From a virus (Duplodnaviria; Heunggongvirae; Uroviricota; Caudoviricetes), in the IMG/VR virus record IMGVR_UViG_3300035208_008116, positions 73,539 to 102,144 of that record: a DNA stretch of 28,606 bases; one strand, given 5' to 3'. A program made the position numbers and the translations under genes. The notes beneath the pieces were generated by a model. That model ran no database searches. It saw only the letters and a list, made by a program, of their open reading frames with translations, and was not told the origin of the DNA. Numbering within the stretch: the first letter of the stretch is position 1; each line of letters begins with the position of its first letter. Positions 3,849 to 22,975 of this stretch are shown piece after piece.

Positions 3849-4634
3849 ATGGCAGATAATAATTTAAAAGACGGGTCCGTTGAAACGGGTAGCCCAATAG
3901 GAAATGGTCCGACTAATCCTAACGCCTTAGGGGGCTCAGTCGGGCAGCCATCAACTGGGCCAGATTATAAGGCGCAATATGAAGAACTAGAGTCGAAGAT
4001 GGGTCCAATGGGACAAGAATTAGGAGACTACCGCAAATTTTTTGAGGGAGTCGCTCCCCTTCTTGACAAATTGGATCAAAGTCCTCAATTAGTCCAGGCT
4101 ATTATGGAAGGCAGAATCGATGCTGACCTAGCCAAAGCAGCTCTGGAAGGTAAAATTTCAATCGCGGAAGCGGCTGTTGTTACCCAAGCTAGCGAGGAAG
4201 TGAAGAAAGAACTTGGAAAGAAGGCATTAGCCTCAACTTCAACAGACGATATTAATCGTCTTATTGAGGAAAAGGCGGCAACCATTCGCCAAGATCTTGA
4301 GGCAAAAATGAAGGAAGACAAGGACGAAAGAGATTTCGAAGCCAAAGTCAATGACTTCATTAGCAATACTCCAGACTTTGAAGATTACGCCAAAGACATA
4401 AATGAGTGGTTAGACAAACATGATGTCACAGACATTCAAGTTGCTTACTACGCCGTCAAAGGTGAACTTTCAGAGCGCGAGGCCCGCAAGAAAGCCCAAG
4501 AGGCTGAAGGTGAAGGCCAAAAAGGTTTAGCGGCGAATGCTGCTGGCGGTGGCTCCCTTGGAACCACTATCGTAGGAGGTGAGGACCTCGTCGACACGCT
4601 TATCGCTGGTCGTTCAAACCCTAACCTGTTCTAA
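3849..4634 (+). CDS. Capsid scaffolding protein, 261 aa
   Basis: Immediately upstream of the MCP; disordered N-terminus, YKAQYEELESKMGPMGQELGDYRK motif, acidic coiled-coil body. Confidence 0.8.
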   Translation: MADNNLKDGSVETGSPIGNGPTNPNALGGSVGQPSTGPDYKAQYEELESKMGPMGQELGDYRKFFEGVAPLLDKLDQSPQLVQAIMEGRIDADLAKAALEGKISIAEAAVVTQASEEVKKELGKKALASTSTDDINRLIEEKAATIRQDLEAKMKEDKDERDFEAKVNDFISNTPDFEDYAKDINEWLDKHDVTDIQVAYYAVKGELSEREARKKAQEAEGEGQKGLAANAAGGGSLGTTIVGGEDLVDTLIAGRSNPNLF

Positions 4635-7430: not shown

Positions 7431-7988
7431 ATGGCAAATGATAGTATAAATTTCTACTATGATCCGACTCGTCAAGGGTTAGATACCACTCTCTGGAAGA
7501 TTCTGTCTGGGACCCCATCGTATGCTGGAGGTAAGATTACCTTGAATGCTGCGGAAATGATCGGTTATGCCGACATCTTAAAAGGGGAAATCACCTTAAG
7601 TGTCACCATCCCGACGGCTCCAACTGCTGACCTACGGAAGTGGGGGCTTTTTCAGAAAGCCAACGGAGCTGGAGTCTGGTTTGATATTCTTGCGGATGTC
7701 TTTTCTTGTAATGTCAAGAATCAAAATGGAACGACGGAATCGGCAATTGTTGAATGGCAGACGGCATGGACAGCAAAAGCGGAATGGACCATTAAGTGGA
7801 CAGGCTTTTCGGCAGAATTCCTTGTAAACGGAGTTCAAATTGCCTTCCTTAATGGGGATACTCTTACTGAAAAGTACTCAACCAGTAGCGTACCAACAAC
7901 CCCTTTGAGCATTTATCTTCGAAACGACAACTCTGATAACATGGATCTGTCTTATGTAGAAGCATTGAATGTCCAGGGTTATGTCTAA
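7431..7988 (+). CDS. Probable beta-sandwich (ConA/LamG-like) virion protein, 185 aa
   Basis: Trp-rich alternating strands, EWTIKWTGFSAEFLVNGVQIA and PLSIYLRN...MDLSYVE typical of lectin-like jelly rolls; fold is inferred. Confidence 0.55.
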   Translation: MANDSINFYYDPTRQGLDTTLWKILSGTPSYAGGKITLNAAEMIGYADILKGEITLSVTIPTAPTADLRKWGLFQKANGAGVWFDILADVFSCNVKNQNGTTESAIVEWQTAWTAKAEWTIKWTGFSAEFLVNGVQIAFLNGDTLTEKYSTSSVPTTPLSIYLRNDNSDNMDLSYVEALNVQGYV

Positions 7989-7997
7989 ACAACTACT

Positions 7998-9503
7998 ATG
8001 TTAAATGGTAATAAACCACAAGCAAGCCCGGGAGCTGAGGGGGGAGCAATCCTTTATCGGGGAACTTGGGATGCAAGTGCAAATACACCAACTCTGGCTA
8101 GTGGAATAGGTACAGCTGGTGATTATTATATTGTCTCAACAGCAGGCACCACCAGTATTGATGGGATAGCTGTTTGGGGTGTCTCTGACTGGGCAGTCTT
8201 CAATGGGTCCACATGGGAGAAAGTGGACAATGCAGGAAACGTTTCTGGCCCAACTTCTTCTACGGACAATGCTGTCGCCAGGTTTAATCTTGCGACCGGC
8301 AAGGTCATTCAGAATTCTGGAGTAACTATCGGAGACGATGAATCGTTAACAGTTGGAACAACAGAGGCCGTGGTCCTGACGACAATGGATGGAGGAGTCC
8401 TTGGGACTATTCCTTCAATTGAATTCAGTTCTCCTTCTTGTCCTTTTGGGACAGGGACGGGGGCAATGAAAGGAGGGCTTATTATTTATGATGACCCTGC
8501 TGTTGCTTCAGGGGTTGCTTCTCTTGTTTTTGTTGACAATTCTTCCCTTTCTTCTTCTCCTCGTGCGACGACTCTTTCGAATAAGTTGGATACTCATGAG
8601 TTATATCTTGAAGGAGCCTATAAATTCACAGTGGAGGGGCATCTTTCCAGTATAGGGACTGAGGGGTGGTTTGGTCCCGCGACAGGGACTGTTGAGGCAG
8701 GTGCGGGCTCAGGAGCCTCTTACTCACTCGTTGCTCCAACTGATATGGCGGGAGAGATTGTCTTAACAACTGGAACAACGGCGCTCGCCACAGCCAGTGT
8801 CTTTACCCTTAATTACTCAAACCCTTATAGTTACTCTCCCTCTATTTCTTTAACCCCAGCAAATGCTGAAGCTGCGGCTCTTGCCGGGGCGACAGGTGTT
8901 TGGGTTAGTTCTGGAACAGGGGGTTTCTCTATCTATTCTGGTGCGACAAAGTTAGGAGATGCTACCGAATATCATTGGTATTACCAAGTGATTGAACACC
9001 AGATGGAGGTTTGGCCCGGCGAGGCAGGAGACGACCTCTCAATTGCTGACGTCGTTAATGTTAGTTGGTATTCAGATGTTTCATCTGTTTATGATGATAT
9101 CGCAATTTCTGAGGATGTCGAAATCGACAAGGTTGATCCTGTTATTTCTGAAGGAGGGGAAGATTTGACTATTGAAGAGGATGTAGGAATGTTCACTGAT
9201 GCTTACAATGTTTCTGATTCTAATGATGAGGATGTTGATATCGCTGAAGATGTTGAGGTATTTACCGACATTTACTACTCGGAAACACCTGGAGATGATA
9301 TCTCTCTTAATGAGGATGTCGAAATGTTCACAGATCTCTATCATATCCCAGATGTTGCTGAAGAAGTACCTGCTGCAGAAGAAGACGTTGAAATGTTCAC
9401 TGATGCTTATAATGTCTCAGACACCATTGACGAGGATATTGGGATAGCTGAAACAGATTACACTGTTGAAACTGACCAGATTGAAGTTGAAGCACCGGCT
9501 TAA
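7998..9503 (+). CDS. Fibre-like virion protein with acidic C-terminal repeats, 501 aa
   Basis: N-terminal YRGTWDASANTPTLASG...DWAVFNGSTWEKVDN and GPTSSTDNAVARF motifs common in phage fibre proteins; C-terminal ~160 aa made of D/E-rich repeats. Confidence 0.7.
   Translation: MLNGNKPQASPGAEGGAILYRGTWDASANTPTLASGIGTAGDYYIVSTAGTTSIDGIAVWGVSDWAVFNGSTWEKVDNAGNVSGPTSSTDNAVARFNLATGKVIQNSGVTIGDDESLTVGTTEAVVLTTMDGGVLGTIPSIEFSSPSCPFGTGTGAMKGGLIIYDDPAVASGVASLVFVDNSSLSSSPRATTLSNKLDTHELYLEGAYKFTVEGHLSSIGTEGWFGPATGTVEAGAGSGASYSLVAPTDMAGEIVLTTGTTALATASVFTLNYSNPYSYSPSISLTPANAEAAALAGATGVWVSSGTGGFSIYSGATKLGDATEYHWYYQVIEHQMEVWPGEAGDDLSIADVVNVSWYSDVSSVYDDIAISEDVEIDKVDPVISEGGEDLTIEEDVGMFTDAYNVSDSNDEDVDIAEDVEVFTDIYYSETPGDDISLNEDVEMFTDLYHIPDVAEEVPAAEEDVEMFTDAYNVSDTIDEDIGIAETDYTVETDQIEVEAPA
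9027..9500 (+). repeat. About 7 tandem 22-24 aa acidic repeats
   Basis: For example EDLTIEEDVGMFTDAYNVSDSND / EDVDIAEDVEVFTDIYYSETPG / DDISLNEDVEMFTDLYHIPDVA; exact 18-bp DNA repeat AATGTTCACTGATGCTTA at 9188 and 9392. Confidence 0.85.
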
Positions 9504-9538
9504 GGTCAAAAATTATTAAAATACTAAAAAACTATGAT

Positions 9539-9985
9539 ATGGCACCTGTTACCGAAATTGGAATGTATGTAATCTCTTTACTGAGAAAAATTATCGCTTA
9601 TCCGATAGAGAAGGCTCTCTTTAGCCTTTTGCTTATTGTTGGGGGGTATCTCTTTGACGAAGCGATGTTTCCTTTGCTTGGGGGGTTACTAGTTCTTATA
9701 ATTTTTGATTTTATCACGGGGGTGGCGGCGGCAAAAACCAGCGGAGAGGAGATTACCTCTTCAAAGATCTCAAGAAGTGCCTTTAAGGTTGTCTTTTACT
9801 CTATCCTTATCTCAGGGGCTCATCTTGCTGGAAATTCTGTTCAGGTTATCACATTATTCGATGACTTGACTCTTAGCTTCTTATCTGTCACGGAGTTGAT
9901 CTCGATTATTGAGAATGTTGGACGGATGGGGTTTTGTACGCCAAAAAGACTCCTTAATACTCTCAAAGATTATACGACTAAATAA
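9539..9985 (+). CDS. Holin (Phage_holin_4_1-like), 148 aa
   Basis: Several hydrophobic segments; DFITGVAAAK...ITSSK and ELISIIENVGRMG...PKRL motifs; adjacent to the endolysin. Confidence 0.85.
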   Translation: MAPVTEIGMYVISLLRKIIAYPIEKALFSLLLIVGGYLFDEAMFPLLGGLLVLIIFDFITGVAAAKTSGEEITSSKISRSAFKVVFYSILISGAHLAGNSVQVITLFDDLTLSFLSVTELISIIENVGRMGFCTPKRLLNTLKDYTTK

Positions 9986-9993
9986 TAAAATAT

Positions 9994-11079
9994 ATGGAGA
10001 ATTACATACCTTCTTTGGGGGGGAATCCCTCACCAAAAGACTATCGAGATATCCCATTAGGGCAAGTTGTTCCGCAGTTAGTATCTTACCCAGATAAATA
10101 TCTGGTGGACATCTCGTTACTGCCCGTTTGGTACCAACGAAAAATTGGGGCTTGTGTGGGGCATGCTTGCGGAAAGTACAAACAAAGTCTAGATATCCCC
10201 GTAACGACTCCTAATATTCTTCCTCTTTCTGCTCGATTTCTTTATGCTTATGCAAAAGCTCTCGACGGATATGAAGGTGAAGGAACCTACCCGAGGTTGG
10301 TAATGAAGATTCTCAAGGATGTAGGGTGTTCAACTGAGAGGACTCTTCCGAATGATACGACCTTAGATCATGAAGCTTATGTCTTTTATAGAGATATCAA
10401 TAAGATCCCTAAGGTTGCGATAGAAGAGGCCTCGCTAAACAAGATTAAGTCTTATGCCTCTGTGTCCATGACAAAGTTGGGAATTCAGCAAGCCTGCTTC
10501 TCGGCGAGGGGGTTGTCTCTCCTTGTGAAACTAGATGAGAGTTGGTGGAGTGACAAAAATGGGGTGACCTGGGATAAGGATCGGATTCTGCCTCTTTGTC
10601 CTCCAAGGAACTCTGTGGGGGGGCATCAGATCTACATCTATGGATATGAAGTAGTCGGGAATGATATGAAGGTGTTCTTTCTCAATAGTTGGTCGAAGGA
10701 TTGGGCCGATAACGGCTGTGGGTGGTTCTGGTTGAGTGAATATCAGGCCTCCTTGGTTGAGGGGTGGACGGCAGTGAATATCCCCGATTACCTCCTCGAG
10801 GAAGTAAAGAATCTTCCTCCTGTATTCTCTCATCACTTCTACCGGTCTATCAATTATGGGGAGTCCAATGAGGAAGTAAAAGCCCTCCAGCGAGCCCTAC
10901 TGATTGATGGAGAGTTTGATTATATTGTCACAGGTTACTATGGAACGATCACATCTGCGGCAGTAAAAGCCTTCCAACGAAAATATCAAGTAGCTTCATT
11001 AGCTGAAATTAATGGGTTAAATGGCCGGTCAGCCGGTCCAAAGACCCGCAAGAAGCTAAATGAATTATTTGATAAGTAA
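9994..11079 (+). CDS. Endolysin: C1A papain-like cysteine peptidase plus C-terminal PG_binding_1 domain, 361 aa
   Basis: Catalytic Q..C (YQRKIGACVGHA), H (GGHQIYIYGY), N (LNSWSKDWADNG); C-terminal GESNEEVKALQRAL...GYYGTITSAAVKAFQRKY. Confidence 0.85.
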   Translation: MENYIPSLGGNPSPKDYRDIPLGQVVPQLVSYPDKYLVDISLLPVWYQRKIGACVGHACGKYKQSLDIPVTTPNILPLSARFLYAYAKALDGYEGEGTYPRLVMKILKDVGCSTERTLPNDTTLDHEAYVFYRDINKIPKVAIEEASLNKIKSYASVSMTKLGIQQACFSARGLSLLVKLDESWWSDKNGVTWDKDRILPLCPPRNSVGGHQIYIYGYEVVGNDMKVFFLNSWSKDWADNGCGWFWLSEYQASLVEGWTAVNIPDYLLEEVKNLPPVFSHHFYRSINYGESNEEVKALQRALLIDGEFDYIVTGYYGTITSAAVKAFQRKYQVASLAEINGLNGRSAGPKTRKKLNELFDK

Positions 11080-11095
11080 GTTAAAAGGTTCAATG

Positions 11096-11111
11096 GGACT
11101 TATGATATACT
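11096..11111 (+). promoter_or_regulatory. Putative late promoter, extended -10, copy 2
   Basis: GGACTTATGATATACT, 15/16 identical to 2575-2590, 54 nt upstream of ATG 11166. Confidence 0.6.
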
Positions 11112-11165
11112 TATCATAGGTCGAAGTCTAAATTATTAGGTATTATTAATTTTTAATTTTTAAAA

Positions 11166-11636
11166 ATGAAAAAGGAAATTAAAGCAAAGAATCCTCGCGG
11201 ATTCTATCGCATTCAGATTACTGAAGATGGTAAAGGTGTCGTTGGCGACTCAGGTTGGAATGAAAACCAAGTCGTTAATGATGGGATTCAACAGTATGTC
11301 GTGAACTGGCTCGTCGGTGATACAGGTAATGGTAAGAGTATTACCTATATGGCTCTTGGTTCAGGTTCTCAACCAGCTTCTAATGGTACCTCTCTTTTGG
11401 GTGAGGTCGTTAAGCGAGCGGCTGTGACCACTTCGGTCACGTCTTCTCGAACTGCTGTCTTTACTGCTCAGTTTGCTAGCGCCGCGTCATTCGTGACTGG
11501 CACTGTAAACATCAGTAACATTGGCTTGTTCAATACTTCTTCTGGCGGTACTATTTTTGCTGGAAACACTTATGCTTCTAGCTCTTGTGCCACTAACCAG
11601 AACGTCAACGCAACGTATCAGATCAGATTTTCGTAA
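11166..11636 (+). CDS. Small structural protein resembling a stand-alone tail-collar/fibre base domain (DUF3751-like), 156 aa
   Basis: Pattern NQVVNDG...ITYMALGSG...TSLLGEVVKR...VFTAQF...ISNIGLFNTSSGGTIFA...ATYQIRF; 15 of 18 Gly codons are GGT/GGC. Confidence 0.65.
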   Translation: MKKEIKAKNPRGFYRIQITEDGKGVVGDSGWNENQVVNDGIQQYVVNWLVGDTGNGKSITYMALGSGSQPASNGTSLLGEVVKRAAVTTSVTSSRTAVFTAQFASAASFVTGTVNISNIGLFNTSSGGTIFAGNTYASSSCATNQNVNATYQIRFS

Positions 11637-11700
11637 ACTTGTCAAGTCCTTTGCCAATTTAACCCTTATCACAAACCATCTTTTTTCTTGTGTTCAAAAG

Positions 11701-11739
11701 CAGAAGGTGAAAGAATCTTGAGATTCCTTTTACATTCTG
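11701..11739. other. Long imperfect hairpin in the intergenic region
   Basis: CAGAAGGTGAAAGAATCT / AGATTCCTTTTACATTCTG can form about 16-17 pairs with one bulge and one mismatch. Confidence 0.45.
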
Positions 11740-11768
11740 ATTCGTTACTGCATTATCCTTCTGAGGAC

Positions 11769-11797
11769 TTGCAAAAAATGTTAATTAGGTATATAAT
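11769..11797 (+). promoter_or_regulatory. Sigma70-type promoter
   Basis: TTGCAA (11769-74), 17-nt spacer, TATAAT (11792-97), 30 nt upstream of the HNH start. Confidence 0.75.
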
Positions 11798-11827
11798 GGA
11801 AGCATTATAAATTTAGTTAATAATAAT

Positions 11828-12505
11828 ATGAAGAAAGTAAGAAAAGAGTGGAGTCGAGAAGAAATTGAGGCTGTCTATAATCGTCCTGGAGTTATTGGTC
11901 GGGAAGCAGCAAAAGAGTTGGGAATTCCTGTTAGAGAATTTTCAGCTTTACTAAAAAAACATTCTATTGGATTTAAGAAAAAAGAGTCAGCGAATCTTCA
12001 ACTTAAGGATAAAGAATGGCTTCGGGATCAGTATCTTAATAAACAGAAATCTGTCAAACAGATTTCTGTAGAAATCGGGGCCACTATAGGAAATGTTAGG
12101 TCAGCCCTTGTCTGGATGGGGATTAAGACAAGAGGTGTTAAAGAATCTCTTGCTACGAAATATCCTCATGGGCGATTCGGGAAAGAATCCGGACGTTGGG
12201 CTGGGGGACGAAGAAAAACAGGCCGGGGATATGTTCAAATATATTCCCCAAACCACAAGGAGGCCGATATTAATGGATATGTGATGGAACATCGATTGGT
12301 TATGGAACAAGCTCTTAATAGGCCTTTATTAAAGAATGAAGACGTCCACCATCAAAATAAGGATAGGGGGGACAATCGACTTGAGAATCTTATTGTTTGC
12401 TCAAGAAGCCAACACAAAAAGATTCATTCTCTGATGAAGCAAAATGCTGAATTAGTTAACAAATTAAAACAATATGAAGAAAATATTAATCGATCCGAAG
12501 ATTGA
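11828..12505 (+). CDS. Free-standing HNH (homing-type) endonuclease with N-terminal DNA-binding region, 225 aa
   Basis: GYVMEHRLVMEQALNRPLLKNEDVHHQNKDRGDNRLENLIVCSRSQH is an HNH_3-type motif; basic HTH-like N-terminus. Confidence 0.9.
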   Translation: MKKVRKEWSREEIEAVYNRPGVIGREAAKELGIPVREFSALLKKHSIGFKKKESANLQLKDKEWLRDQYLNKQKSVKQISVEIGATIGNVRSALVWMGIKTRGVKESLATKYPHGRFGKESGRWAGGRRKTGRGYVQIYSPNHKEADINGYVMEHRLVMEQALNRPLLKNEDVHHQNKDRGDNRLENLIVCSRSQHKKIHSLMKQNAELVNKLKQYEENINRSED

Positions 12506-13037
12506 GGCTCTTCTCAAAGAGCATAATCAGGGGGTCAAGTTAGATTTAGGGTGTGGTGCTAATAAGAATCCTGGTTTCTTGGGAATTGACTATCGAGCGT
12601 TACCAGGAGTGGACATTGTCCACAATCTCGAAAAATTCCCCTTTCCCCTCCCTAATGAATGTGCATCATTGGCTGTTGCCTCTCACGTGGTGGAACACCT
12701 TGACCCACATGGCGGAAAGTTCATTGAATTTATGAATGAGGTCTGGCGTCTACTAAAACCAGACGGTGAGTTCTGGATAGCAGCTCCTTATGCTGGTTCA
12801 CCTGGCTATTGGCAAGATCCTACCCACTGCAATCCTTGTAGTGAAGTTACATGGGAGTACTTTGACCCAATGGGGCCAATGACGGGGGGTGCTTATTATC
12901 AAATCTATCGTCCATTACCGTGGAAGATCAAGCTTAACACCTGGCATGAAACGGGTAATTTGGAGGCAGTTTTGATTAAGAAGCGGATTGATAAGGCTAA
13001 TTTGGTCGACCCTAGCTATCTAGCAAAAATAAAATAA
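12474..13037 (+). CDS. Class I SAM-dependent methyltransferase (Methyltransf_11-like), 187 aa
   Basis: Motif I KLDLGCG, motif II FLGID, then SHVVEHL, EVWRLLKPDGEFWIAAP and DPTH. Confidence 0.9.
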   Translation: MKKILIDPKIEALLKEHNQGVKLDLGCGANKNPGFLGIDYRALPGVDIVHNLEKFPFPLPNECASLAVASHVVEHLDPHGGKFIEFMNEVWRLLKPDGEFWIAAPYAGSPGYWQDPTHCNPCSEVTWEYFDPMGPMTGGAYYQIYRPLPWKIKLNTWHETGNLEAVLIKKRIDKANLVDPSYLAKIK

Positions 13038-13038
13038 T

Positions 13039-13854
13039 ATGAAGAAGGAAAAATTCGTAAAACCGAGTTCTTTTACAGGTTTAAACAAGAATGATGGATC
13101 TTGGCACAACAGGATCTTGATCGCGACCCCGTCAACAGGGACGGTTAGAACAGAGTGGGTCTTGGCCCGATATGGTCAGATCATCCCCACGAATTGGTCA
13201 CATGTGGAGTTAATCCAATGGATCAATAGTTATGTTCCGATTGAGTACCTCCTCCCAGATGCAGAGAATCTTGTTGCTAAAGTAGTAGTTGAAGGTGATT
13301 TTGAATGGTTGCTATCAATCGAGGAGGATAATGTCCTCCCTCCTGATGCTTTCGTTAGAATCAACAACTATATGAGAGACGCAAAGGTTCCTATTGTTTC
13401 TGGTCTCTATTTTTCAAAATCTGAACCGCCAGAACCTATCCTCTATCGGGGGAGAGGAAATGGTAGTTACCAGGATTGGAAGATGGGTGACAAAGTATGG
13501 GTAGATGGAGTCCCTTTTGGGTTCACTCTTATCCATGGCTCTATCATCAAAGCAATGTGGGATGAGGCCCCAGAATATGTTGTCAGTGGACAAACCACAA
13601 GACGAGTCTTTGACCTCCCCGACAGGAACTTTGGAAGCGTAGAAGAAGGCGGCTATGGGGCTGTTAGGGGAACGACTGATCTCAATTGGTGTACTCAGAT
13701 AATGAAAGGAAACTTCTTTGAAAAAGCTGGCTGGCCAGAATATCAAAAGAAACAATATCCTTTCTTGGTTGATACCAATATCTTCATTAAGCACATAGAT
13801 AAACAAGGTCGACAGTATCCATTAGCAGGGATTCCTGCTCGTTATCAAAAATAA
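13039..13854 (+). CDS. GT-A fold (GT2-like) glycosyltransferase, 271 aa
   Basis: RILIATP; WLLSIEEDNVLPPD at the DXD position; VPIVSGLYF; VDGVPFGFTLIH; TDLNWC; FLVDTNIFIKHI. Confidence 0.75.
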   Translation: MKKEKFVKPSSFTGLNKNDGSWHNRILIATPSTGTVRTEWVLARYGQIIPTNWSHVELIQWINSYVPIEYLLPDAENLVAKVVVEGDFEWLLSIEEDNVLPPDAFVRINNYMRDAKVPIVSGLYFSKSEPPEPILYRGRGNGSYQDWKMGDKVWVDGVPFGFTLIHGSIIKAMWDEAPEYVVSGQTTRRVFDLPDRNFGSVEEGGYGAVRGTTDLNWCTQIMKGNFFEKAGWPEYQKKQYPFLVDTNIFIKHIDKQGRQYPLAGIPARYQK

Positions 13855-13859
13855 TTACT

Positions 13860-14033
13860 ATGGATCCAATAATTGAAAGTCATTTGAATCTTGAACATGC
13901 TGGCAAGGAGGAGGAATTTAAGGATTCCTGCATTCTTTGCAAAAATTTCTTAGAGGGTGCTTCTGTAAAAGGAGCTGATCTTGGCGTGAATCTTAGTGAT
14001 TCGGCCTCAACTAAGGATATTTTTGGCGGCTAA
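13860..14033 (+). CDS. Small acidic protein, 57 aa (not in ORF track)
   Basis: MDPIIESHLNLEHAGKEEEFKDSCILCKNFLEGASVKGADLGVNLSDSASTKDIFGG*; starts 5 nt after the GT stop. Confidence 0.6.
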   Translation: MDPIIESHLNLEHAGKEEEFKDSCILCKNFLEGASVKGADLGVNLSDSASTKDIFGG

Positions 14034-14047
14034 TTTTTCTAGGTCCA

Positions 14048-14260
14048 ATGAAAAAGAATCTCCGAATAGAGATAATTGATAAGGTTGTTGTTAAAGATAG
14101 CCCTAAACTTGATCGTAAAGCGGCTTATGGGAACTTTGTTGTTCTTGAATATAAAAATGACTGGTTACCTCAATTCAATCCTCTCTTTCAAGGAGTCAAT
14201 ACTTATAGCAGACCCCCGACGGAATCTTTTTCTAGTGGGAGGGGTTTTATTCTTTTTTAA
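14048..14260 (+). CDS. Hypothetical protein, 70 aa
   Basis: ORF track; N-terminus LRIEIIDKVVVKDSP matches the local repeat pattern. Confidence 0.55.
   Translation: MKKNLRIEIIDKVVVKDSPKLDRKAAYGNFVVLEYKNDWLPQFNPLFQGVNTYSRPPTESFSSGRGFILF
14210..14258 (+). terminator. Possible weak intrinsic terminator
   Basis: AGACCCC (14210-16) pairs with GGGGTTT (14241-47), followed by TTATTCTTTTTT; the loop is large and the element overlaps a CDS end. Confidence 0.3.
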
Positions 14261-14307
14261 TATTTTTAGACTTTACTTTTTCCAAGTGAGTCTAATTTTT
14301 GTATAAA

Positions 14308-14868
14308 ATGGACCTCAATATTAATATCATTGACTATGTCCCGTTGGGAAATGATCTCTTTTGGAAAAATTGGGATACTCCATGGAAGGACTGTTCTACT
14401 TCATGGAAAGACCTAACTGATCCTACCCCCCATGAGGTTGTCTTCTTTTTCCTTGAGACAGATTTAAATATCACTATCTTAGCGGAGGCTACAGATGTAG
14501 ACTCCGAATGTGATATCGCTAATTTTGATGGGGCGACGTCATTAACAGGGGCTGTTCCAGCAAGGGCACAGTCTTTCCTCTCTCAAGGGGGTGAATTGGT
14601 CTCAATGTCCTTCTACCTTTCAAAGAAGGGCCTTGTTTCAGGAACGATTGAGGCAAGAATCTATGATGCTGAGGGTGTCTATGGGACTACAAATATCCCC
14701 TCTGGAACCCCTCTTGCTACCTCCACCCCCGTGAGTGTTTCTACTTTAGATACTGAATATGACGGGACAGTTGATTCTGTTAAGGAAGTTTCTTTTGATT
14801 TCTCCTCGACGGTCTTTAACCTGACTCCAGGTAATTATTATTGTGCTGTAATCTACTACACACCATAA
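14308..14868 (+). CDS. Repeat- and module-containing virion accessory protein, 186 aa
   Basis: Track start 14299 is TTG; ATG 14308 with an AAA leader is preferred. Contains repeat units, a WKN/WKD heptad stretch and a C-terminally shortened copy of the ~150-aa module (RAQSF...YYCAVIYY). Confidence 0.75.
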   Translation: MDLNINIIDYVPLGNDLFWKNWDTPWKDCSTSWKDLTDPTPHEVVFFFLETDLNITILAEATDVDSECDIANFDGATSLTGAVPARAQSFLSQGGELVSMSFYLSKKGLVSGTIEARIYDAEGVYGTTNIPSGTPLATSTPVSVSTLDTEYDGTVDSVKEVSFDFSSTVFNLTPGNYYCAVIYYTP

Positions 14869-17800
14869 TGAATGACCTTAATGTAAATGTAAGAGAGACC
14901 CTTTCTTTGGCGGATGTCATTTTCTATCTTCCACCTCCTTCAATTGTTGGACAAAATTATTATGTTGATGCGACAGGAGGATTAGATAGCAATACTGGAA
15001 CAGACTCTGGCCATCCATGGAAGACAATCTCTAAGGTAAATGGGCAGATGGCCAATTTTCACCCTGGAGATCAAATTCTTTTTAAGAAAGGGGAAAGTTG
15101 GACAGAACAATTGGTTGTAAGTGCTTCCGGTTCTTCTTCAGGGGCAATTATTTTTTCTTCATATGGTTCGGGGAGTAAACCCCTTATTGATCTTGCCGAT
15201 AGCCTTGCCTTTGGGATCTACACAAATGGTACTTCTTATCTTGTTTTTAGAGATATTGAGATAGCTAATGCGAAAGATGATTCCAGCGCGAGTGTGGGGG
15301 TGGCCCTCCTTGATACGAATAATGTAACACTTTATGAATTAACTATCACTGACATAAAGGGTGTTGGGGGTGTATTCATAATGATTAATACAGCAGGGAG
15401 GGGGATTAACAATCTTGTTAAAAGTTCAACAATCACGGGGACATCTAGTACAACCTATAGTCTTGCTCAAGGGAATAAGGGGGTGGGTCTCTACGTGTTA
15501 TCTGGAGATGTATCCTATGGAAGTGGAAATATTTTTGAAGATAATACAATCACGGGGAATGGGAGTCATGGCATTGGATTGTTCTCTCCAAATACTAAAA
15601 TTTTAAATAATATCGTTAGTCAAAATGGGGAAGCGGGGATTGGTGGATCGGGCTTAGAGGTTCATGACACATTGATTCAGTACAACTTCTTAGAAGAAAA
15701 CTGCCAAACTCTAGATGACTGTTTTGGGATTAACCTCTTCCGAGTGGGTGTGAATAATATTGTTGATCGAAACACAACAAGGGCACAGCACGATACAATC
15801 AATGACCCTAGCGTCCCAATTAATCCTGGATCTGCCGGGAAGCTAGGAACAGGAGGAATCCGATTTGATGGAGGGGATATTGGTTTAGGCCCGGGGCTTG
15901 ATTATATTGATTCTTTAGGGAATGTTATCACCAATAACACTATCAGTGATGAATATGACGCTATTCAAGTTTGGAATTTTGATTATATTGGGATAACTGG
16001 AAATACGATCAGTGGAAGTACAAGAGCGGGTCTTTATGCTGGGGCTAACAATACAGCAGGGGAAGGAGGTGCAACTAAAGTTATTTCAGTCATTTTTACT
16101 GGAAATTTTGTGACAGGCACAGGAGTCGTTATTTATCTTGATACCGCCATTGTCACCCAAGATTTAGTTCCAACGGTTTTTACAAATAATCAGCTTGCCG
16201 CAACATTTGTTAAGGTCTCAGGGCTGGATGATGGGGGATCACTAGACCCTTCTTCTCCCTCCGTTTCTCAGTCCTTTACCGTTTACGGAGTTGATCAAGG
16301 AGGATATCTTTCCTATGTAGGAGTGGTAATAAATAGACAAACAACTCCTGGGGCGGGGACGATTGTCGCGAAACTTTATTCTCATAGTGGAACTTATAGC
16401 ACATCAAGTGCTCCTGGAACTCTTCTTGCAACTTCTTTATCTAAAAATATTTCTGACATCTCTGCAATTGCTCAATTTGTTTATTTTGATTTTTCTCCCT
16501 CTGCCTATTGGGTGGAGCCAGGCCGATACGTCTTAACTGTCGAAACTTCGGGGGCTGATTCTAATGGTCTTGCTATTTGGTGGAGCAATAATGGGGCAAA
16601 CTATGGAAAGACGTCGCCAACAGTCGAAACTGGTCATACTGGGAATGGGGGGGTCTATTATACAGGTACAGGCTGGGTTCCTCTTTGGTGGATGGATTTA
16701 AATTTTGCGGTATACCTGAGTGGATGGGGAGAAAATCTTATCACTGGGGAGGATGTTTCTGTCGTTTTTCAACATAATATCAATGTTTTTGATTCTACCC
16801 TTCACTACCAAAATCTAGGGACAATAGATAATGCTAGTTATAGTGAGTCTCATCATGTGGGGAATCTTTCCCTCGGAGGGGGAGGGGCTCCTATTATGCC
16901 TACTTTTGGAGAGACTTTTACCACAACAAATTGGGGGATATTAAATAAAGTCCAATTTTATTTAAGGAAACTAGGAGCTCCTACTGGGACAGCCGTCGCG
17001 ACTATCTATGATATCCATGGGACGTATGGGGTTGACGCTACTCCTCTGGGGCAACCTCTTGCCACGTCAGAGACTTTTGATGTCTCAACCTTGACCACAA
17101 CAAACCAACTGAAAGATTTTATTTTTAGTGATGAGGAAAAGATTGAATTACTTCCTGATCACCACTACGCTGTTGCGATTACCTACTTAGGGGGAAATAC
17201 TTCAAATTATTTAGGATTTAGTGTTGATAATTCAACTCTTGCTTATCCAGGGAATTTTTTCTGGAGGGAATATGAGGGGGGAGGATGGACCGCCTACACG
17301 GGTTATGACGCCTCTTTCCATGTTTGGACAGAAACAAATAATGTGGCAGAAGAGATAACCCTTATCCGGGATCTTGGAATAAATGTTTTTGAGTCAAGGG
17401 CGATCACAGAAAATGTTGAAAAGGAGCTTTCCTCCTTGACTCTCTCGCTTTCGGTTGTCGATGCGAATGTTTTAGCAGATGTTCCTGAAGTTAGCCGAAT
17501 CCATTTACTTTCCCCTGGGGATGATATTTCGATCTCTGATATCCCTGAAGTAAAAATAGAATGGATTATTTCTGTTTCTGATTCTCTTTCAATCTCTGAA
17601 TACCCCACGCCTACAGATTACCGAGTTCTCCCTCTCGTCTCAGATTCTATTTCCATCACTGAAGGTGTATCAGTTCAAACAGGGGCGACATTAGGTATTG
17701 ACCAAAATGACACTCTTTCGGTTGTCGATACCCCCACCCTCAGCCGCTGGCATGTAATTTCAACATCAGAGGATATAACTATTGTGGATAGCCCAACAGT

Positions 17801-20444
17801 AAGGAGAGATCCTTCTTTTTCCGTGAGTGATTCTCTTTCTCTTGGGGAAGACAGTATCGCAATGATTGTCGATAATGCTCTTTTAATAAATGTTTGGGAC
17901 ACCCCCGCCCTCTCAGACTCTCCTTTGTTAGAAAAAACCTCCATTATTTCAGTGTCTGATAGCCTTAATCTTTCGGAGGCGATTTCTAGGACGCTGGTTT
18001 TTAATGTTTCTGTTAATGATTCTCTCTTAATTGGAGAAACGGCGGGAGGAGCAGAATCTTTTAATATCTTAGTTAATGACTCCTTAGGTTTAACAGATTT
18101 CCCTGAATCAGCATTATCGGCTCTTACTATTTCTACTACTGAGGATCTTTCAATCTCTGAAGGGCTTGTCACTCCCCCCGTGAACTTATCACTCACCCCC
18201 ATCGATTCTCTTAGTGCAGATGAGTCAGTAACCCTTGCTTTTGACAGTTTCGCTTCTCAGGTTGAAACTCTTACCTTAAATGACTCAGCGATAGTTTCAA
18301 TAGAAGACCTTCTTATTATTGTTTGGGAAGCCCCCCAACTGGTAGAAGTTCCCAACACGCAATTTGATCAACCAGGACTAATTCCGGGAGAAGATATTGA
18401 AATTTCCGAAATCGTTAGTATTCTCTCTGGAGATATTAATGTTATTACGTCAGAATCTCAGACAATTACTGAAGATGTTTTTCTCCGTCAGGATTTAACC
18501 CCCGTAGATGCTATTTCCATTACCGAAATCGTAATGATTCAAAATGATCGGGAAGTAGAGGCTATAGAGCTCCTTGACAGTGGAACCTTTGAATATTTTT
18601 CTGTCGATCTCGGTGATCTTAGTATCGGTGTTAATGAGACTCAAGAAATAAGTGAATCTTTGGATATCTCTTGTGTTGAGTACCCGAACATTAATGTTAA
18701 CGACTTTCTTGCTATCGGAGAGATAATAACGGCCCAATCCGATGATCTTAATATCTCAAAAACTGAAAATTTATCTATTTCCGAAGGTTTCCTTTACCAA
18801 GCGGGGGAGTTAGAAATTAACCTAAATGAAAATGTTTCTGTTTCAGATTCCCTCACGAATATTTCTCTTAATCTTAATATTGAGATTGTCGAATTCTCTC
18901 CCCTTCTTCTTGATGGTTATTCCGAAACATATTATTCCACGCCATCGACATTTTATTCTACCATCCACGAGTACGGACAGGCTTTTAAGGCGAATCAAAC
19001 GGCAAAAATTAATTCAGTTAAATTTTATCTTTCTGCTCACGGGACAATTTTAGGGACGGCAGTTGCTAAACTATATTTAGCTACGGGTACTCCCGGGATT
19101 GACGCCAAAGGGTCTGGATCCCCTCTCGCAACTTCTGATCCTTTTGATGTCACTTCGATAGGTGTCGACACCTATGGGTTATATTCCTTTAATTTTTCTG
19201 GGGTAAATAAATATCAAATACAGGCAGGAGTAAGTTATGCTATTGTCCTTTACTATGATGTGACTTTAGATCCCTTTGTTGATTATCTTAGTATTGGTTT
19301 CGATACTTATGCGACAGTTCATGGAGGGAATAAAACATGGAGGCAGACGGGGGGTTATTGGAATTTTAACGCAGGTGATGACTTAATCTTTTATCTTTAC
19401 GGAGATAATGACTCGATGGTCGTTCCCATCACGGAAGATGTCTCTCTTCAACTTTCTCGTGACATCCCTCCCCCTGGGGTTATTGACCTCATCCCCATTT
19501 TAGATGTTCCAACATTGTCTATTTCAAACTTGGAGATCAGTGTCACCGATGAGTTGGAGATAAGTGAGGACCTCACGCTTCTTTTTGGGTCTATTCTTTT
19601 TCCAGGAGATGATATTTTGATTTCCGAGAATCTCTTGTTTGAGATGGTTAGCTTCATTGAAGAGGTTGATTCTATTTCGAACAGTGAATCATTAAATGTT
19701 TTCATCCTTGACATCAGCCTTACCACCTCCCCCAGTGACCCCTTGGAAATCTCTGAGTTGGCTACTGTTCAATCTGAGGACTTGTCACTTCTTGTTGCTG
19801 ACGAGCTTTCTATTTCGGAGATTTCGGAAGGAGAAGAAATTTTACTAAAGATTGATACCTCTGATGCGGTGGGGATTTCGGATGAGGCTGCCTTGGCAAT
19901 TTGGTGGGTCTCTTCAATTGGGGAGACCTTGTCTATCTCTGAATCTGTTATTGTTACTCTCTCTGATTTAAATATTCTAGTTAGCGATTCTCTCGAGATT
20001 GGAGAGCAGGTTGTTTCTTTTCCTGCTGTCGGAGGAATTAACCCTGGGGATGATATTTCTATTAAGGAGGATATTTCTTTTTGGGTAGAAGAGCCTAGCA
20101 TTAACTTTTTAGTATCAGACACACTCACCATTACAGAAGATGCTGAATTTTCCAGCGGGGCAGAGTCTCAATCAGGAGATAGCCTTAATATCTCAGACGT
20201 TCCCATTGTATCCATTGAAGATATTCCTATTAGTGTTAATGATATAGTGCTTTTGACAGAAAGTTCTACCCCGACATGGTCCGCACTCTTGGTGCTTCTG
20301 AAGCACTTACCGTCTCTGATGTGGCTACAGTCGGATCCGTCCTTCAGGATAATTCAATTATTGTTTGCCTTAATCAGGAGGGGACGGCCCATCCTGGAAA
20401 TTATTCTATCTTTAGTACCATTTGGAATTATGTTAGTCACCTAG
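14868..20444 (+). CDS. Giant fibre/adhesin-like protein, part 1 (1,858 aa): right-handed beta-helix, three ~150-aa modules and about 40 acidic repeats
   Basis: ATG overlaps the upstream stop (TAATG). NYYVDATGGLDSNTG...PWKTI...PGDQILFKKG...IFSSYGSG..P marks a pectate-lyase-like beta-helix start. The last ~56 aa are out-of-register sequence after ~20272. Confidence 0.8.
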   Translation: MNDLNVNVRETLSLADVIFYLPPPSIVGQNYYVDATGGLDSNTGTDSGHPWKTISKVNGQMANFHPGDQILFKKGESWTEQLVVSASGSSSGAIIFSSYGSGSKPLIDLADSLAFGIYTNGTSYLVFRDIEIANAKDDSSASVGVALLDTNNVTLYELTITDIKGVGGVFIMINTAGRGINNLVKSSTITGTSSTTYSLAQGNKGVGLYVLSGDVSYGSGNIFEDNTITGNGSHGIGLFSPNTKILNNIVSQNGEAGIGGSGLEVHDTLIQYNFLEENCQTLDDCFGINLFRVGVNNIVDRNTTRAQHDTINDPSVPINPGSAGKLGTGGIRFDGGDIGLGPGLDYIDSLGNVITNNTISDEYDAIQVWNFDYIGITGNTISGSTRAGLYAGANNTAGEGGATKVISVIFTGNFVTGTGVVIYLDTAIVTQDLVPTVFTNNQLAATFVKVSGLDDGGSLDPSSPSVSQSFTVYGVDQGGYLSYVGVVINRQTTPGAGTIVAKLYSHSGTYSTSSAPGTLLATSLSKNISDISAIAQFVYFDFSPSAYWVEPGRYVLTVETSGADSNGLAIWWSNNGANYGKTSPTVETGHTGNGGVYYTGTGWVPLWWMDLNFAVYLSGWGENLITGEDVSVVFQHNINVFDSTLHYQNLGTIDNASYSESHHVGNLSLGGGGAPIMPTFGETFTTTNWGILNKVQFYLRKLGAPTGTAVATIYDIHGTYGVDATPLGQPLATSETFDVSTLTTTNQLKDFIFSDEEKIELLPDHHYAVAITYLGGNTSNYLGFSVDNSTLAYPGNFFWREYEGGGWTAYTGYDASFHVWTETNNVAEEITLIRDLGINVFESRAITENVEKELSSLTLSLSVVDANVLADVPEVSRIHLLSPGDDISISDIPEVKIEWIISVSDSLSISEYPTPTDYRVLPLVSDSISITEGVSVQTGATLGIDQNDTLSVVDTPTLSRWHVISTSEDITIVDSPTVRRDPSFSVSDSLSLGEDSIAMIVDNALLINVWDTPALSDSPLLEKTSIISVSDSLNLSEAISRTLVFNVSVNDSLLIGETAGGAESFNILVNDSLGLTDFPESALSALTISTTEDLSISEGLVTPPVNLSLTPIDSLSADESVTLAFDSFASQVETLTLNDSAIVSIEDLLIIVWEAPQLVEVPNTQFDQPGLIPGEDIEISEIVSILSGDINVITSESQTITEDVFLRQDLTPVDAISITEIVMIQNDREVEAIELLDSGTFEYFSVDLGDLSIGVNETQEISESLDISCVEYPNINVNDFLAIGEIITAQSDDLNISKTENLSISEGFLYQAGELEINLNENVSVSDSLTNISLNLNIEIVEFSPLLLDGYSETYYSTPSTFYSTIHEYGQAFKANQTAKINSVKFYLSAHGTILGTAVAKLYLATGTPGIDAKGSGSPLATSDPFDVTSIGVDTYGLYSFNFSGVNKYQIQAGVSYAIVLYYDVTLDPFVDYLSIGFDTYATVHGGNKTWRQTGGYWNFNAGDDLIFYLYGDNDSMVVPITEDVSLQLSRDIPPPGVIDLIPILDVPTLSISNLEISVTDELEISEDLTLLFGSILFPGDDILISENLLFEMVSFIEEVDSISNSESLNVFILDISLTTSPSDPLEISELATVQSEDLSLLVADELSISEISEGEEILLKIDTSDAVGISDEAALAIWWVSSIGETLSISESVIVTLSDLNILVSDSLEIGEQVVSFPAVGGINPGDDISIKEDISFWVEEPSINFLVSDTLTITEDAEFSSGAESQSGDSLNISDVPIVSIEDIPISVNDIVLLTESSTPTWSALLVLLKHLPSLMWLQSDPSFRIIQLLFALIRRGRPILEIILSLVPFGIMLVT

Positions 20445-22600
20445 ATGTTATTTTTAAAGTTTTAAAGAATGGAGGAAATTCTGTTTCAATCTCTGAGTAC
20501 GTCTTGGTTGAATTTCCAAGAGACCCCCTCACAGGCGAAGATCTTACTATTTCGGAAGACGTTCAGTTAGAAGTATTTATTAATCTTGAGGCTTCTGAAG
20601 ATATTTTAATTGAAGATTTTGTCGAGGTCGTCCTTTCAGATATTGAAATGTCTGAAGCGATAACGATTTCTGAGGATGTCACTGTCTCTTTGGAGGACAT
20701 GGTAATTGAGGTCAGTGAACCCATTTCAATTGAAGATTCTTTAGATATCGAAATTCTTATAGACTTCTTTTCTGACGACTCCCTGACTATCGAGGAGGAT
20801 ATTACTATTAATATCGAAGATCTTACCATCTCTACTGATGAGGAAATCTCTTCTAATGAAGTCCTCGAATTAACTCTCGATGATCTCATTATTGAAGTAA
20901 CTGAAGATATTCTTAGCGAAGAAGACTTAACTTTTGAAGGGCCAAGCATTGATATCGATGTTTCCGATGGTGTGGAGATTACCGAAGCTCAAAGTTGGGA
21001 CAATAATCTCGCAATTGCTCTTGATGGGGATATTCATACCAGTGAAGAATATCTTGGGGTCGGAACGATTGTTTATCAAACTCTTAATGGTATAGTTATT
21101 TCTGAAAGAGCTCAATCTTTTATCTCCAGAGGAAACATTCTTGACTCAGTTAAATTCCAGGTAGCCACCGTAGGATCTCCAACGGGGGTCACTTATGCAA
21201 AAATTTATGTTCATAGTGGAACTTATGGAACGACAAGTGTGCCCTCAGGCGAAGCCCTTGCGACGTCTGAAGCTGTTGATGTTTCCACTATCTCTACCAC
21301 CCCAAGTCTTGTCACATTCTCTTTTTCTGGTGACCAAAGAATCCCGTTATCTTCCCAATATTATTGTGTAGCCATTTATTATCTGGATGGAGACGCTGGA
21401 AATTATTTGTCCATTGGTTATACCGATGATCAATATAGTGGGAACGAGAGTTACTATCTTACGGGGGCGGATTACTGGCAGTTCGAATCTGACCGTGATC
21501 TAATTTTTTCTATTTCGACAGAAAATTATAGTGAACCTCTTGTTATTGAGGATGATGTGACGGTAGCTACAGAGGACTTGGCAGTGGATGTCTCTGATAT
21601 TTTAACGATTACGGACTTTGTTGGGGATATGTATCAGGGGGATCTCTGGGTTATTGGGGTCAGTGATTTATTGACAATAGAAGAAGATCTTACGGTGACG
21701 ATGGATGATATTGCGGTTATTCTTGAAGAAGATCTTGTGAATGAGGAATTCCTGACGGAAGAAGACGTCACCATAAGCCTCGGGATAGATTTAGAAGCCT
21801 CAGAAGATATTGTTGTCACAGAGGATGTATCTTCCTCTCCACTTAATGAAATTGATATTTCTGACAATCTGTCACTGGAGGAAGAGGTTACAACGATCAC
21901 TGAAAATTTAGAGGTAGGTGCGTGGGAAGATATTTCCCTCTCTGAGTTAGCCAGTGCTTTTAATGGGTTTGAACTTTCTACCTCTGAAACCGTTGAAGTT
22001 CTAGAGAATGTAACTTTTGAAACTTCTCTTAATTTAGAAGCTTCAGAGGATATAGAAGATATTACGGACTTCCCTGAAGTAGAAACTGGAATTTTATCCA
22101 TTTTTATATCAGATGATCTTTCTCCTGAAGAAACTCTTGATTTCTCCCAAACAGAGGACCTCTGGCCTTCTCTTTTGGAAGGAATCTTTCTTTCAGAGAC
22201 TGTCTTTCTTCTTTGCGAGGATCTCGTTATCGAAGTATCTGATGATATTATTATCATTGACGAGGTTGATTCATTCTTCATTCTCGCGAACCGTGAAGTT
22301 GCTGTTACTGACGATATCTCCCCCTTAGATATCCCTTTCCTTAATCTTGATATTCTCTTAATTTCTGTCGTGGAAGATATCGGGACAGAAGAGGATGTTA
22401 CCATCTTCCATGAAGAATTCCCTCCAGTTTGGGATGGTATCTCAATAACCGAGGAAATAATCCTTGAAAATGCTCTCTCAGACATTGATGGGACTTATGA
22501 TATACTGACTATAGAGGATTCTGTTGAAGTCGTCCTTGTTAGCTTAATATCTGTTGATGATTCCTTAACGATCTCGGGGTCCGTGGTTATTGATTCTGTC
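17340..22600 (+). repeat. About 65-70 degenerate 20-22 aa acidic repeats in three blocks (~17340-18895, ~19410-21020, ~21530-22600)
   Basis: Consensus roughly [S/N/G/T][D/E]x[L/I]x[I/L/V]x[E/D]x[V/P]...[L/I]x[I/V]x[V], e.g. SDSLSISEYPTPTDYRVLPLV, SDSLNLSEAISRTLVFNVSV, GEDLTISEDVQLEVFINLEA; counted by hand. Confidence 0.9.
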
Positions 22601-22975
22601 CGATATTCACCCGGTGGATTTACAAGGGGGGAGACAGATGTTCAAAAACAGAGGGGAGAGATAGAGGTAAAAGACTACCGTCATTTAGTTCAAGTCGAAT
22701 CACCTCGAGGAGAGATAGAAAAACCGTCCCCGGCAGGAAAAATCAGTAATATTGAAGGAAGTCTTAAGGCAACCAAAAAAAATATGTACCAGAGAGGAAA
22801 AATAGGGATACCGATGCCTGGGACAACCACTTACTTCCCGGATATTCTCCCTATCCAAATAAGAGAACTACAAGCATCGACTGAAGTTATCACTCTTTTT
22901 TCTGACTTAATCGGTATCGGTTTAATTCCAGAGGCTACATCAATAGTGGAAAATATTTCAATTAATATTAGTTAA
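20276..22975 (+). CDS. Giant fibre/adhesin-like protein, part 2 (899 aa): about 27 acidic repeats, one ~150-aa module and a basic C-terminal segment; probably the -1 frame continuation of part 1
   Basis: Frame is open from 20243; the repeat register continues across the junction; the ATG context lacks the A/T-rich leader of other genes. Confidence 0.75.
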   Translation: MVRTLGASEALTVSDVATVGSVLQDNSIIVCLNQEGTAHPGNYSIFSTIWNYVSHLDVIFKVLKNGGNSVSISEYVLVEFPRDPLTGEDLTISEDVQLEVFINLEASEDILIEDFVEVVLSDIEMSEAITISEDVTVSLEDMVIEVSEPISIEDSLDIEILIDFFSDDSLTIEEDITINIEDLTISTDEEISSNEVLELTLDDLIIEVTEDILSEEDLTFEGPSIDIDVSDGVEITEAQSWDNNLAIALDGDIHTSEEYLGVGTIVYQTLNGIVISERAQSFISRGNILDSVKFQVATVGSPTGVTYAKIYVHSGTYGTTSVPSGEALATSEAVDVSTISTTPSLVTFSFSGDQRIPLSSQYYCVAIYYLDGDAGNYLSIGYTDDQYSGNESYYLTGADYWQFESDRDLIFSISTENYSEPLVIEDDVTVATEDLAVDVSDILTITDFVGDMYQGDLWVIGVSDLLTIEEDLTVTMDDIAVILEEDLVNEEFLTEEDVTISLGIDLEASEDIVVTEDVSSSPLNEIDISDNLSLEEEVTTITENLEVGAWEDISLSELASAFNGFELSTSETVEVLENVTFETSLNLEASEDIEDITDFPEVETGILSIFISDDLSPEETLDFSQTEDLWPSLLEGIFLSETVFLLCEDLVIEVSDDIIIIDEVDSFFILANREVAVTDDISPLDIPFLNLDILLISVVEDIGTEEDVTIFHEEFPPVWDGISITEEIILENALSDIDGTYDILTIEDSVEVVLVSLISVDDSLTISGSVVIDSVRYSPGGFTRGETDVQKQRGEIEVKDYRHLVQVESPRGEIEKPSPAGKISNIEGSLKATKKNMYQRGKIGIPMPGTTTYFPDILPIQIRELQASTEVITLFSDLIGIGLIPEATSIVENISINIS

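Follow-up and report, generated by a model that had tools for sequence, protein, structure and literature searches.

Introduction

Several phages build fibres from small proteins of 100-170 amino acids (aa) that dimerise along an extended chain which completes their beta-sheets, as described for GP4, A1002, Bas63 and phi812 (PMC13730344, PMC12609058, PMC13433997). GP4 gp80, the phi812 arm segment and the Bas63 whisker form dimers that an extended scaffold chain cements together (PMC13730344; PMC12609058; PMC13433997). In fibre I of the Ralstonia podophage GP4, gp80 dimers are carried on a separately encoded rope that is docked on the collar protein gp77 (PDB 8JOU; Zheng et al., 2023, as related in PMC12609058), and in A1002 11 dimers dock on 226-268 rope residues (PMC13730344). 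Rope-and-bead fibres of this kind have been solved only since 2023, in few cultured phages, and hold 2 to 11 bead dimers. In this work we analyse a locus of the IMG/VR virus record IMGVR_UViG_3300035208_008116 (Caudoviricetes) that encodes a giant repeat protein, the candidate rope, together with a 156-aa protein, the candidate bead, and that probably specifies a very large chain-like virion fibre.

All coordinates are positions in the window, the 28.6-kb stretch of DNA that was analysed, which is itself the final stretch of a 102,144-bp record rated complete. An earlier note on this DNA, made from the letters alone, had taken the gene set for a system not previously described. This is out of date, since the rope-and-bead architecture itself is already known from GP4, VP1, Bas63, Sf14, phi812 and A1002 in work published from 2023 to November 2026, and has been solved in GP4, Bas63, Sf14, phi812 and A1002 (PMC13730344, PMC12609058, PMC13433997).

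A giant repeat protein as candidate rope

The giant candidate rope protein is encoded on the plus strand at 14868-22975 and comprises 2,702 aa once a missing C is counted. The reading frame in the record breaks at a CCCC run (20269-20272), the open reading frames (ORFs) called with translation table 11 ending at 20444 and restarting at 20276 in another frame. Contigs from four other runs, which belong to three studies of landfill and groundwater, have an extra C after 20268 and are otherwise identical (4/4); this fifth C fuses the frames into a single ORF, and the repeat period continues over the join. What breaks the frame in this record is an indel of one base, and the single giant protein that had been drawn from the sequence alone stands. 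A complete relative has an unbroken 2,683-aa ORF with 62 repeat units.

Repeat units were counted with a position-specific scoring matrix (PSSM) of 15 columns, started from motif-spaced seeds and refined four times, whose consensus converged on ISVSDDLSISEDVTV; its threshold was met about once in composition-preserving shuffles. Of the units that it places in the giant, 33 fall in the first frame (14868-20270) and 28 in the second, about 60 altogether and mostly spaced by 20-21 aa, so that the repeats of the earlier note are real while its count of 65-70 was too high. Even positions of the unit are hydrophobic except for two acidic ones six residues apart and odd positions are largely Ser, Thr or Asp; judged from this pattern, the unit is made up of a long amphipathic strand segment and, after it, a shorter strand segment. 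A period of 20-22 aa was found in 32 independent repeat sets. N-glycosylation sequons are frequent in just 3 of these sets and occur in 3% of the units of the window, and are thus not a general feature of the units. In the three sequon-rich sets (G003, 52471-60519, minus strand; L002, 13552-19319; L018, 14872-17049) an Asn at the seventh position, a fixed place, creates N-[IV]-[ST] sequons in 60-76% of the units.

Over the full 102-kb genome the PSSM found repeat arrays only in the giant gene and in the 501-aa fibre gene treated below. One or two units had also been claimed for three small ORFs upstream of the giant gene (13860, 14048 and 14299); these did not hold up, as the best PSSM scores of the three (0.6, -0.9 and 3.5 bits) are close to or under the 95th percentile for shuffles of the same ORFs, which leaves no significant unit. 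The PSSM scan was preferred and HMMER negatives on the repeats were discarded because hmmsearch undercounts the units and a 62-unit ORF escaped a HMMER genome search queried with a repeat. In a MAFFT alignment of two-unit segments the register slipped, and the alignment was left unused.

The arrays occupy the space between the folded domains of the giant. The protein starts with a predicted right-handed beta-helix (14868-16220, +) like those of GH136 lacto-N-biosidase and NosD; similarity to GH136 (PDB 7v6i and 5gqc; phmmer E 7e-10 to 6e-9) spans only aa 26-162, and a Pfam NosD match lies beyond these residues. It is followed by two tandem modules (16260-17360, +; aa 465-638 and 672-831), rope array 1 (17448-18878, +; about 22 units), module 3 (18879-19472, +; aa 1338-1535), rope array 2 (19473 to about 20340, +; about 14 units, spanning the frame break with the period kept), rope array 3 (20465-21019, +; about 9 units), module 4 (21038-21568, +; aa 2058-2234) and rope array 4 (21521-22609, +; about 16 units). 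The remaining basic, non-repeat C-terminal region (22610-22975, +) may be a virion anchor, judged by gene order, since the gene for the head-tail adaptor comes directly after the giant gene. For the second half of the giant, the Atlas monomer model reaches a pLDDT of 0.48 with a confident fold only in the module, and according to this model the repeat segments probably do not fold on their own.

The modules are DUF4082-like, lectin-like beta-sandwiches of about 170 aa, present in four full copies and one partial copy (aa 1826-1886) that are clearly paralogous by jackhmmer. The match to Pfam PF13313 (DUF4082), obtained with a sister of the two tandem modules, is weak (E 0.02; 15.3 bits, the gathering cut-off being 28.4). 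Module 4 (aa 252-425 of the second frame) has a matching Atlas cluster at a TM value of 0.84, and in a neighbour cluster of the module DUF4082 is present in 55% of the members (feature score 0.82), with lectin-like annotation also nearby. Pieces of the same module are found elsewhere. The 189-aa ORF at 14299-14868 (+), which has no rope unit, contains its first two thirds (aa 77-187 correspond to profile positions 20-126 in jackhmmer) and may be a gene remnant, and the partial copy inside the giant (20340-20530 in the window) covers only profile positions 132-195; by their sequence the two look like recombination leftovers among module copies.

The 156-aa candidate bead protein

The 156-aa protein (11166-11636, +) is predicted to be a stand-alone beta-sandwich (AF2 model, pLDDT 81). 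Compared with the PDB, the model resembles GP4 fibre-I gp80 with a VIA Z of 9.0 over 115 of 136 residues, A511 gp105 with 7.9, the phi812 arm segment with 7.6 and the Bas63 and Sf14 whiskers with 6.8, unrelated entries reaching at most 4.2. A profile of 62 diverse family members searched against all PDB sequences gave one match up to E 10, at E 0.0035, to the 171-aa structural protein of entries 26LA and 44NX, aligned over residues 4-147 and thus nearly full length. Entry 44NX is that of the A1002 fibre, in which gp41 is the 171-residue bead (PMC13730344).

The GP4 gp80 family, PF23140, was matched by only one of 67 relatives of the 156-aa protein (E 0.0031). On the modelled fold, the 156-aa protein is like the PF23140 family in fold and probably in action and is not a member of it by sequence. 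Its own family comprises about 1,958 clusters at 90% identity, many of them 60-84% identical, and 642 clusters at 50% identity. The members are nearly all stand-alone proteins of 150-190 aa, none of them fused, and are highly conserved, like those of the gp80 family. Natural fusions of bead and rope were sought, and the long ORFs found in this way were merely stop-free upstream frames in GC-rich contigs. As to annotation, the 156-aa protein has a weak match to a PHROG "head protein" (E 0.0075) and some clusters are annotated as tail-collar fibre.

The gene has codon usage like that of the major capsid protein (MCP) gene. GGT and GGC make up 15 of its 18 Gly codons (83%), compared to 36 of 42 (86%) in the MCP gene and 0-58% in all other genes, and on a head-gene codon score built with the bead gene excluded it is second only to the MCP gene, which bears out the capsid-grade codon bias attributed to it in the earlier note. 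The two genes also share an upstream word: by an exact-word count over the full 102-kb genome, the 12-mer TCTAAATTATTA (11127-11138, +) occurs on the plus strand only upstream of the MCP gene (by 37 nucleotides, at 4630) and of the bead gene (by 39 nucleotides).

Candidate bead and rope genes occur together

Twenty-five non-redundant bead loci are flanked on either side by 8 kb or more; in 20 of them an ORF with at least three units was found, and in 12 one with at least ten. These repeat ORFs lie within 10 kb of the bead gene, usually a few kb downstream, and the loci with both genes include contigs with portal, MuF and capsid genes of a different type. Three complete relatives seemed repeat-negative at first, and two of them hold a repeat protein farther off (one of 13 units, the other the 62-unit, 2,683-aa protein); when the 13-unit protein was used as query in a search for related loci, only the query itself was returned. 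The third (G002, the record of locus L052; 101 kb) carries the trio of bead, methyltransferase and glycosyltransferase genes without acidic repeats; three large ORFs of this genome (890, 539 and 936 aa; about 31.0-38.2 kb, minus strand) are instead packed with alternating Ser/Pro units such as ISPSLSPSISISPSL, which may be a different dialect of rope.

In the reverse direction, a DNA pattern of three units was searched and its matches were filtered by the PSSM, an out-of-frame variant of the pattern serving as control (5 matches). About 12 of 80 loci examined were repeat-positive among the matches listed, and among these matches the bead gene was present in all seven repeat-positive records of at least 17 kb and in none of 23 repeat-negative pattern matches. 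The co-occurrence that the earlier note had proposed as a check was thus found in both directions, with one near-complete record (G006) as exception.

Short putative rope tails on other proteins

The 501-aa fibre gene (7998-9503, +) combines an N-terminal domain of tail-fibre type, with PHROG tail-protein matches at aa 16-84, with a C-terminal rope tail (nucleotides 9018 to about 9480). The PSSM finds five strong units here (aa 341-449, starting at 341, 362, 384, 407 and 429), and two degenerate units follow them by eye, so that the figure of about seven given from the sequence alone is reached only if these two are counted.

The adjoining gene upstream encodes a 185-aa protein (7431-7988) that has no rope units here. 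In relatives, small lectin-like proteins that are kin of the 185-aa protein terminate in one to four units, and because of these relatives the 185-aa protein groups with the repeat proteins under single linkage.

Neighbouring enzymes and genomic setting

A class I S-adenosylmethionine-dependent methyltransferase of 187 aa (12474-13037, +; Pfam Methyltransf_11, E 4e-5) and a 271-aa glycosyltransferase of GT-A fold (13039-13854, +; AF2 pLDDT 84.5) are encoded downstream of the bead gene, in agreement with the methyltransferase/glycosyltransferase pair noted before. The 271-aa protein has 79 PDB matches at E 0.001 or below in Foldseek, led by STIV A197 (7e-10) and including collagen hydroxylysine galactosyltransferases and the PBCV-1 capsid glycosyltransferase. 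In its acidic, DxD-type motif IEEDN (aa 93-97), D97 is invariant in 50 relatives. Of 77 loci that contain a relative of the 156-aa gene, 75 have the methyltransferase downstream of it and 68 the glycosyltransferase.

An HNH endonuclease gene (11828-12505, +; Pfam HNH_3) stands between the bead and methyltransferase genes. It is present in just 14 of the 77 related loci, a distribution by which it is an optional mobile insertion. NUMOD3-type endonuclease genes were observed near the cassette in other relatives (L002, L004), and the bead cassette seems to be frequently targeted by homing endonucleases.

All long ORFs of the window are on the plus strand. Genes for the portal (85), scaffold (3849) and SU10-type MCP (4667) are followed by three small head-proximal genes, the 501-aa fibre (7998), holin (9539), endolysin (9994) and the 156-aa gene (11166); then come the HNH endonuclease, the methyltransferase, the 271-aa protein, three small ORFs, the giant gene, an SU10-type head-tail adaptor (22987; Pfam SU10_adaptor) and two more tail genes. 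The holin and endolysin genes sit amid structural genes, the fibre gene preceding them and the bead gene following, and the endolysin (9994-11079) has both a papain-like C1 peptidase and a PG_binding_1 domain. The phage has no close cultured relative; megablast with the window found nothing, the best match of the MCP is 31% identical, and a tblastn search of the bead and the glycosyltransferase against 50,697 phage records was likewise negative. Near-identical contigs of 46-52 kb, compared over 19800-20800 of the window, were recovered in three metagenome studies of landfill (2018) and groundwater (2022), which indicates that this phage or very close strains are widespread.

A proposed rope-and-bead model and its alternatives

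Based on the fold of the 156-aa protein, its profile match to A1002 gp41, the 20-21-aa period of the repeats, the two-way co-occurrence of the genes and the MCP-like signals of the bead gene, we consider that this region probably encodes a rope-and-bead virion fibre of very large size. The 2,702-aa protein would be the rope and each of its about 60 units would dock the 156-aa protein, probably as a dimer, a rope strand joining the beta-sandwich of the bead by strand augmentation as in GP4, A1002, Bas63/Sf14 and phi812. In A1002 the docking of 11 dimers on 226-268 residues corresponds to 20-24 residues per dimer, which fits the period found here. Repeat number would set the length of the fibre, roughly 160 nm at the A1002 value of about 27 Å per dimer, as well as the demand for beads, more than 100 copies per rope (two or more per unit), and MCP-like expression signals suit such a demand. 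Both the beta-helix and the four DUF4082-like modules would interrupt the rope and be displayed along it, as the scaffold domains of phi812 are, the short rope tails of the 501-aa fibre and of the lectin-like proteins of relatives would be coated by the same bead, and the methyltransferase and the GT-A glycosyltransferase would probably put a (methylated) sugar on the bead or the rope. Bead binding, stoichiometry, fibre length, attachment site and enzyme targets are what we infer here from the sequences and models.

A number of observations weigh against this model. The top structural match of the 156-aa model (Z 10.0) is an internal domain of a tail chain of HFTV1 (953 aa) for which no bead role is described, so that the beta-sandwich fold is not exclusive to bead proteins. 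The profile match to A1002 gp41 is marginal (20.8 bits), comparison with the GP4 gp80 family PF23140 by hhalign was not significant (probability 0.6% and 3.5%) and the 156-aa protein has no Pfam match. On the side of the rope, the acidic repeat motif has no detectable sequence similarity to known ropes (phmmer of the repeat array against the PDB gave no match) and the N-terminal beta-helix is typical of trimeric tailspikes, which would favour a three-chain shaft. Regarding co-occurrence, G002 has a bead gene and Ser/Pro-type repeats instead of acidic ones, and G006, the exception mentioned above, has three similar units and no bead gene. No bead-rope interface was obtained, physical or modelled; the prediction of a complex between four copies of the 156-aa protein and a 41-aa rope piece of two units (score 0.01, mark 0.32) speaks neither for nor against binding. 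The proposal of the earlier note that the repeats are strands completing 156-aa beads is thus supported in part, by fold, profile match, period, co-occurrence and MCP-like expression signals.

The main rival is a self-folding trimeric shaft, in which the repeats fold by themselves as the shaft of a three-chain fibre or tailspike and the 156-aa protein is an unrelated collar or adaptor protein that travels with the fibre genes. The alternating hydrophobic/polar pattern suits beta-solenoids, a GH136/NosD-like beta-helix at the N-terminus is typical of trimeric depolymerases, and the fold of the 156-aa protein also occurs in the trimeric HFTV1 baseplate protein (the Z 10.0 match) and in its family with the tail-collar fibre annotation. 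Even so, we hold this alternative to be unlikely: the repeat region is modelled with low confidence as a monomer, bead and repeats go tightly together in both directions across unrelated head modules, single units at the end of small globular proteins in relatives make no sense for a shaft, a low-copy adaptor would not explain MCP-like codon usage, and the profile match is to a proven bead protein. A less probable alternative still is that the acidic, Ser/Thr-rich repeats are a flexible, mucin-like glycosylated spacer, the substrate of the glycosyltransferase and methyltransferase, and that the 156-aa protein is a separate high-copy protein such as a capsid decoration. The GT-A enzyme does resemble glycosyltransferases of structural proteins (collagen GalT, PBCV-1 A64R and STIV A197), and both the weak PHROG "head protein" match and the position of the bead gene directly after the head genes in relatives would suit a decoration protein. 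Against a disordered spacer, a strict 20-21-aa period and a strand pattern are conserved in the 32 repeat sets, which argues for a structural register; the occurrence of the trio with a different capsid type makes a capsid-specific decoration unlikely, and the fold matches of the 156-aa protein are fibre parts and not decoration proteins. That the giant gene is in fact two genes or a decaying pseudogene, as the broken frame of the record would have it, is very improbable given the fifth C in four other assemblies, the period that crosses the join and the unbroken ORF of the relative.

If the rope-and-bead model is right, the locus suggests that this architecture can be scaled to about 60 docking sites, with sugar-binding and sugar-cutting modules inside the rope, and offers a simple rule by which repeat number gives both fibre length and bead copy number. 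It also suggests that the principle can, by way of short rope tails, be shared among several different head proteins, and the family, with roughly 640 clusters at 50% identity that all stem from uncultured phages (landfill, groundwater and other samples), suggests that the principle is widespread. A defined pair of enzymes linked to a candidate fibre subunit comes with the locus. For annotation, a name would be gained for a large phage family of 150-190-aa "hypothetical" proteins and for giant, otherwise unreadable repeat ORFs. It is a tentative and rather doubtful further step to regard bead, methyltransferase, GT-A glycosyltransferase and rope(s) as a self-contained mobile cassette that moves between unrelated tailed-phage lineages and builds fibres of about 100-200 nm, with length set by repeat number, lectin and enzyme modules spliced in and 100 or more beads per rope coated with a methylated sugar; if true, this would be a programmable, glycan-cloaked filament for multivalent adhesion.

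Comparison with known systems

Cyanophage A-1(L), named in the earlier note as a comparator, turns out to be a poor one. Its neck fibre gp82-gp81-gp80 has a beaded look and many copies of one small protein, as proposed here, but gp81 trimers are linked head to tail by N-terminal hairpins and no templating chain sets their number (PMC10966104). The A-1(L) fibre chain is absent among the fold matches of the 156-aa protein, gp81 having no solved structure for comparison.

Virion glycosylation systems were reportedly described by Freeman and colleagues in 2023 in the mycobacteriophages Che8, Corndog and Myrna. As in phage systems of this kind, a glycosyltransferase is encoded here in the structural module beside a high-copy, Ser/Thr-rich virion protein, with a methyltransferase in addition; unlike in them, the two predicted enzymes go with the gene of a candidate fibre bead and not with capsid or tail-tube genes.

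The collar-whisker complex of Escherichia phage Bas63 and Shigella phage Sf14, in which whisker dimers are threaded on the N-terminal rope extension of another protein, is a parallel to the short rope tails of the 501-aa fibre and of the lectin-like proteins of relatives (PMC12609058, PMC11821841). It differs in having two dimers per rope, beads of about 107 aa and a location at the myovirus neck. In the baseplate arm of Staphylococcus phage phi812 and Listeria phage A511, whose segment folds are matched at Z 7.6-7.9, scaffold linkers complete the beta-sheets between segment dimers, and between these linkers the scaffold gp117 has folded domains and sites where receptor-binding proteins dock, the closest parallel to modules displayed on a rope (PMC13433997). 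Unlike the candidate fibre, however, the phi812 arm (segment protein gp118) belongs to a myovirus baseplate, has six dimers and a scaffold that starts in the wedge, and shows no regular tandem array.

With GP4 the locus shares the best fold match of bead type (Z 9.0), a rope encoded as a separate protein and a highly conserved bead family. GP4 has only five dimers and no inserted modules, no significant sequence or profile similarity connects the two, and no methyltransferase/glycosyltransferase pair was found near the GP4 bead gene. The gene transcribed directly after gp80 in GP4 encodes gp79 (L224, 8548-9525, minus strand; 325 aa, annotated as virion-associated), which has about ten Gly-rich units with a significant period of 20 aa and 10 aa; it was not found by sequence in the PDB and, as we infer, may be the rope chain of 8JOU.

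The fibre of the Pseudomonas podophage A1002 is alike in having small stand-alone beads (147-171 aa in A1002), which dock there in tandem by beta-sheet augmentation (PMC13730344). Common to both are an SU10-type adaptor, the adjacent position of bead and rope genes and a folded domain within or at the end of the rope. The A1002 rope is part of the nozzle protein (gp39) and carries 11 dimers, whereas about 60 units are found here in a separate 2,702-aa protein; two bead genes (gp40 and gp41) are present there and one here, where the methyltransferase and glycosyltransferase are fixed beside it and the rope has a beta-helix, four lectin-like modules and an acidic repeat motif. Compared to the solved cases altogether, what is new in this locus is the presence of about 60 sites on one chain, with a beta-helix and lectin-like modules placed within it, a separate bead family that extends over hundreds of uncultured phage clusters, and a fixed methyltransferase-glycosyltransferase pair.

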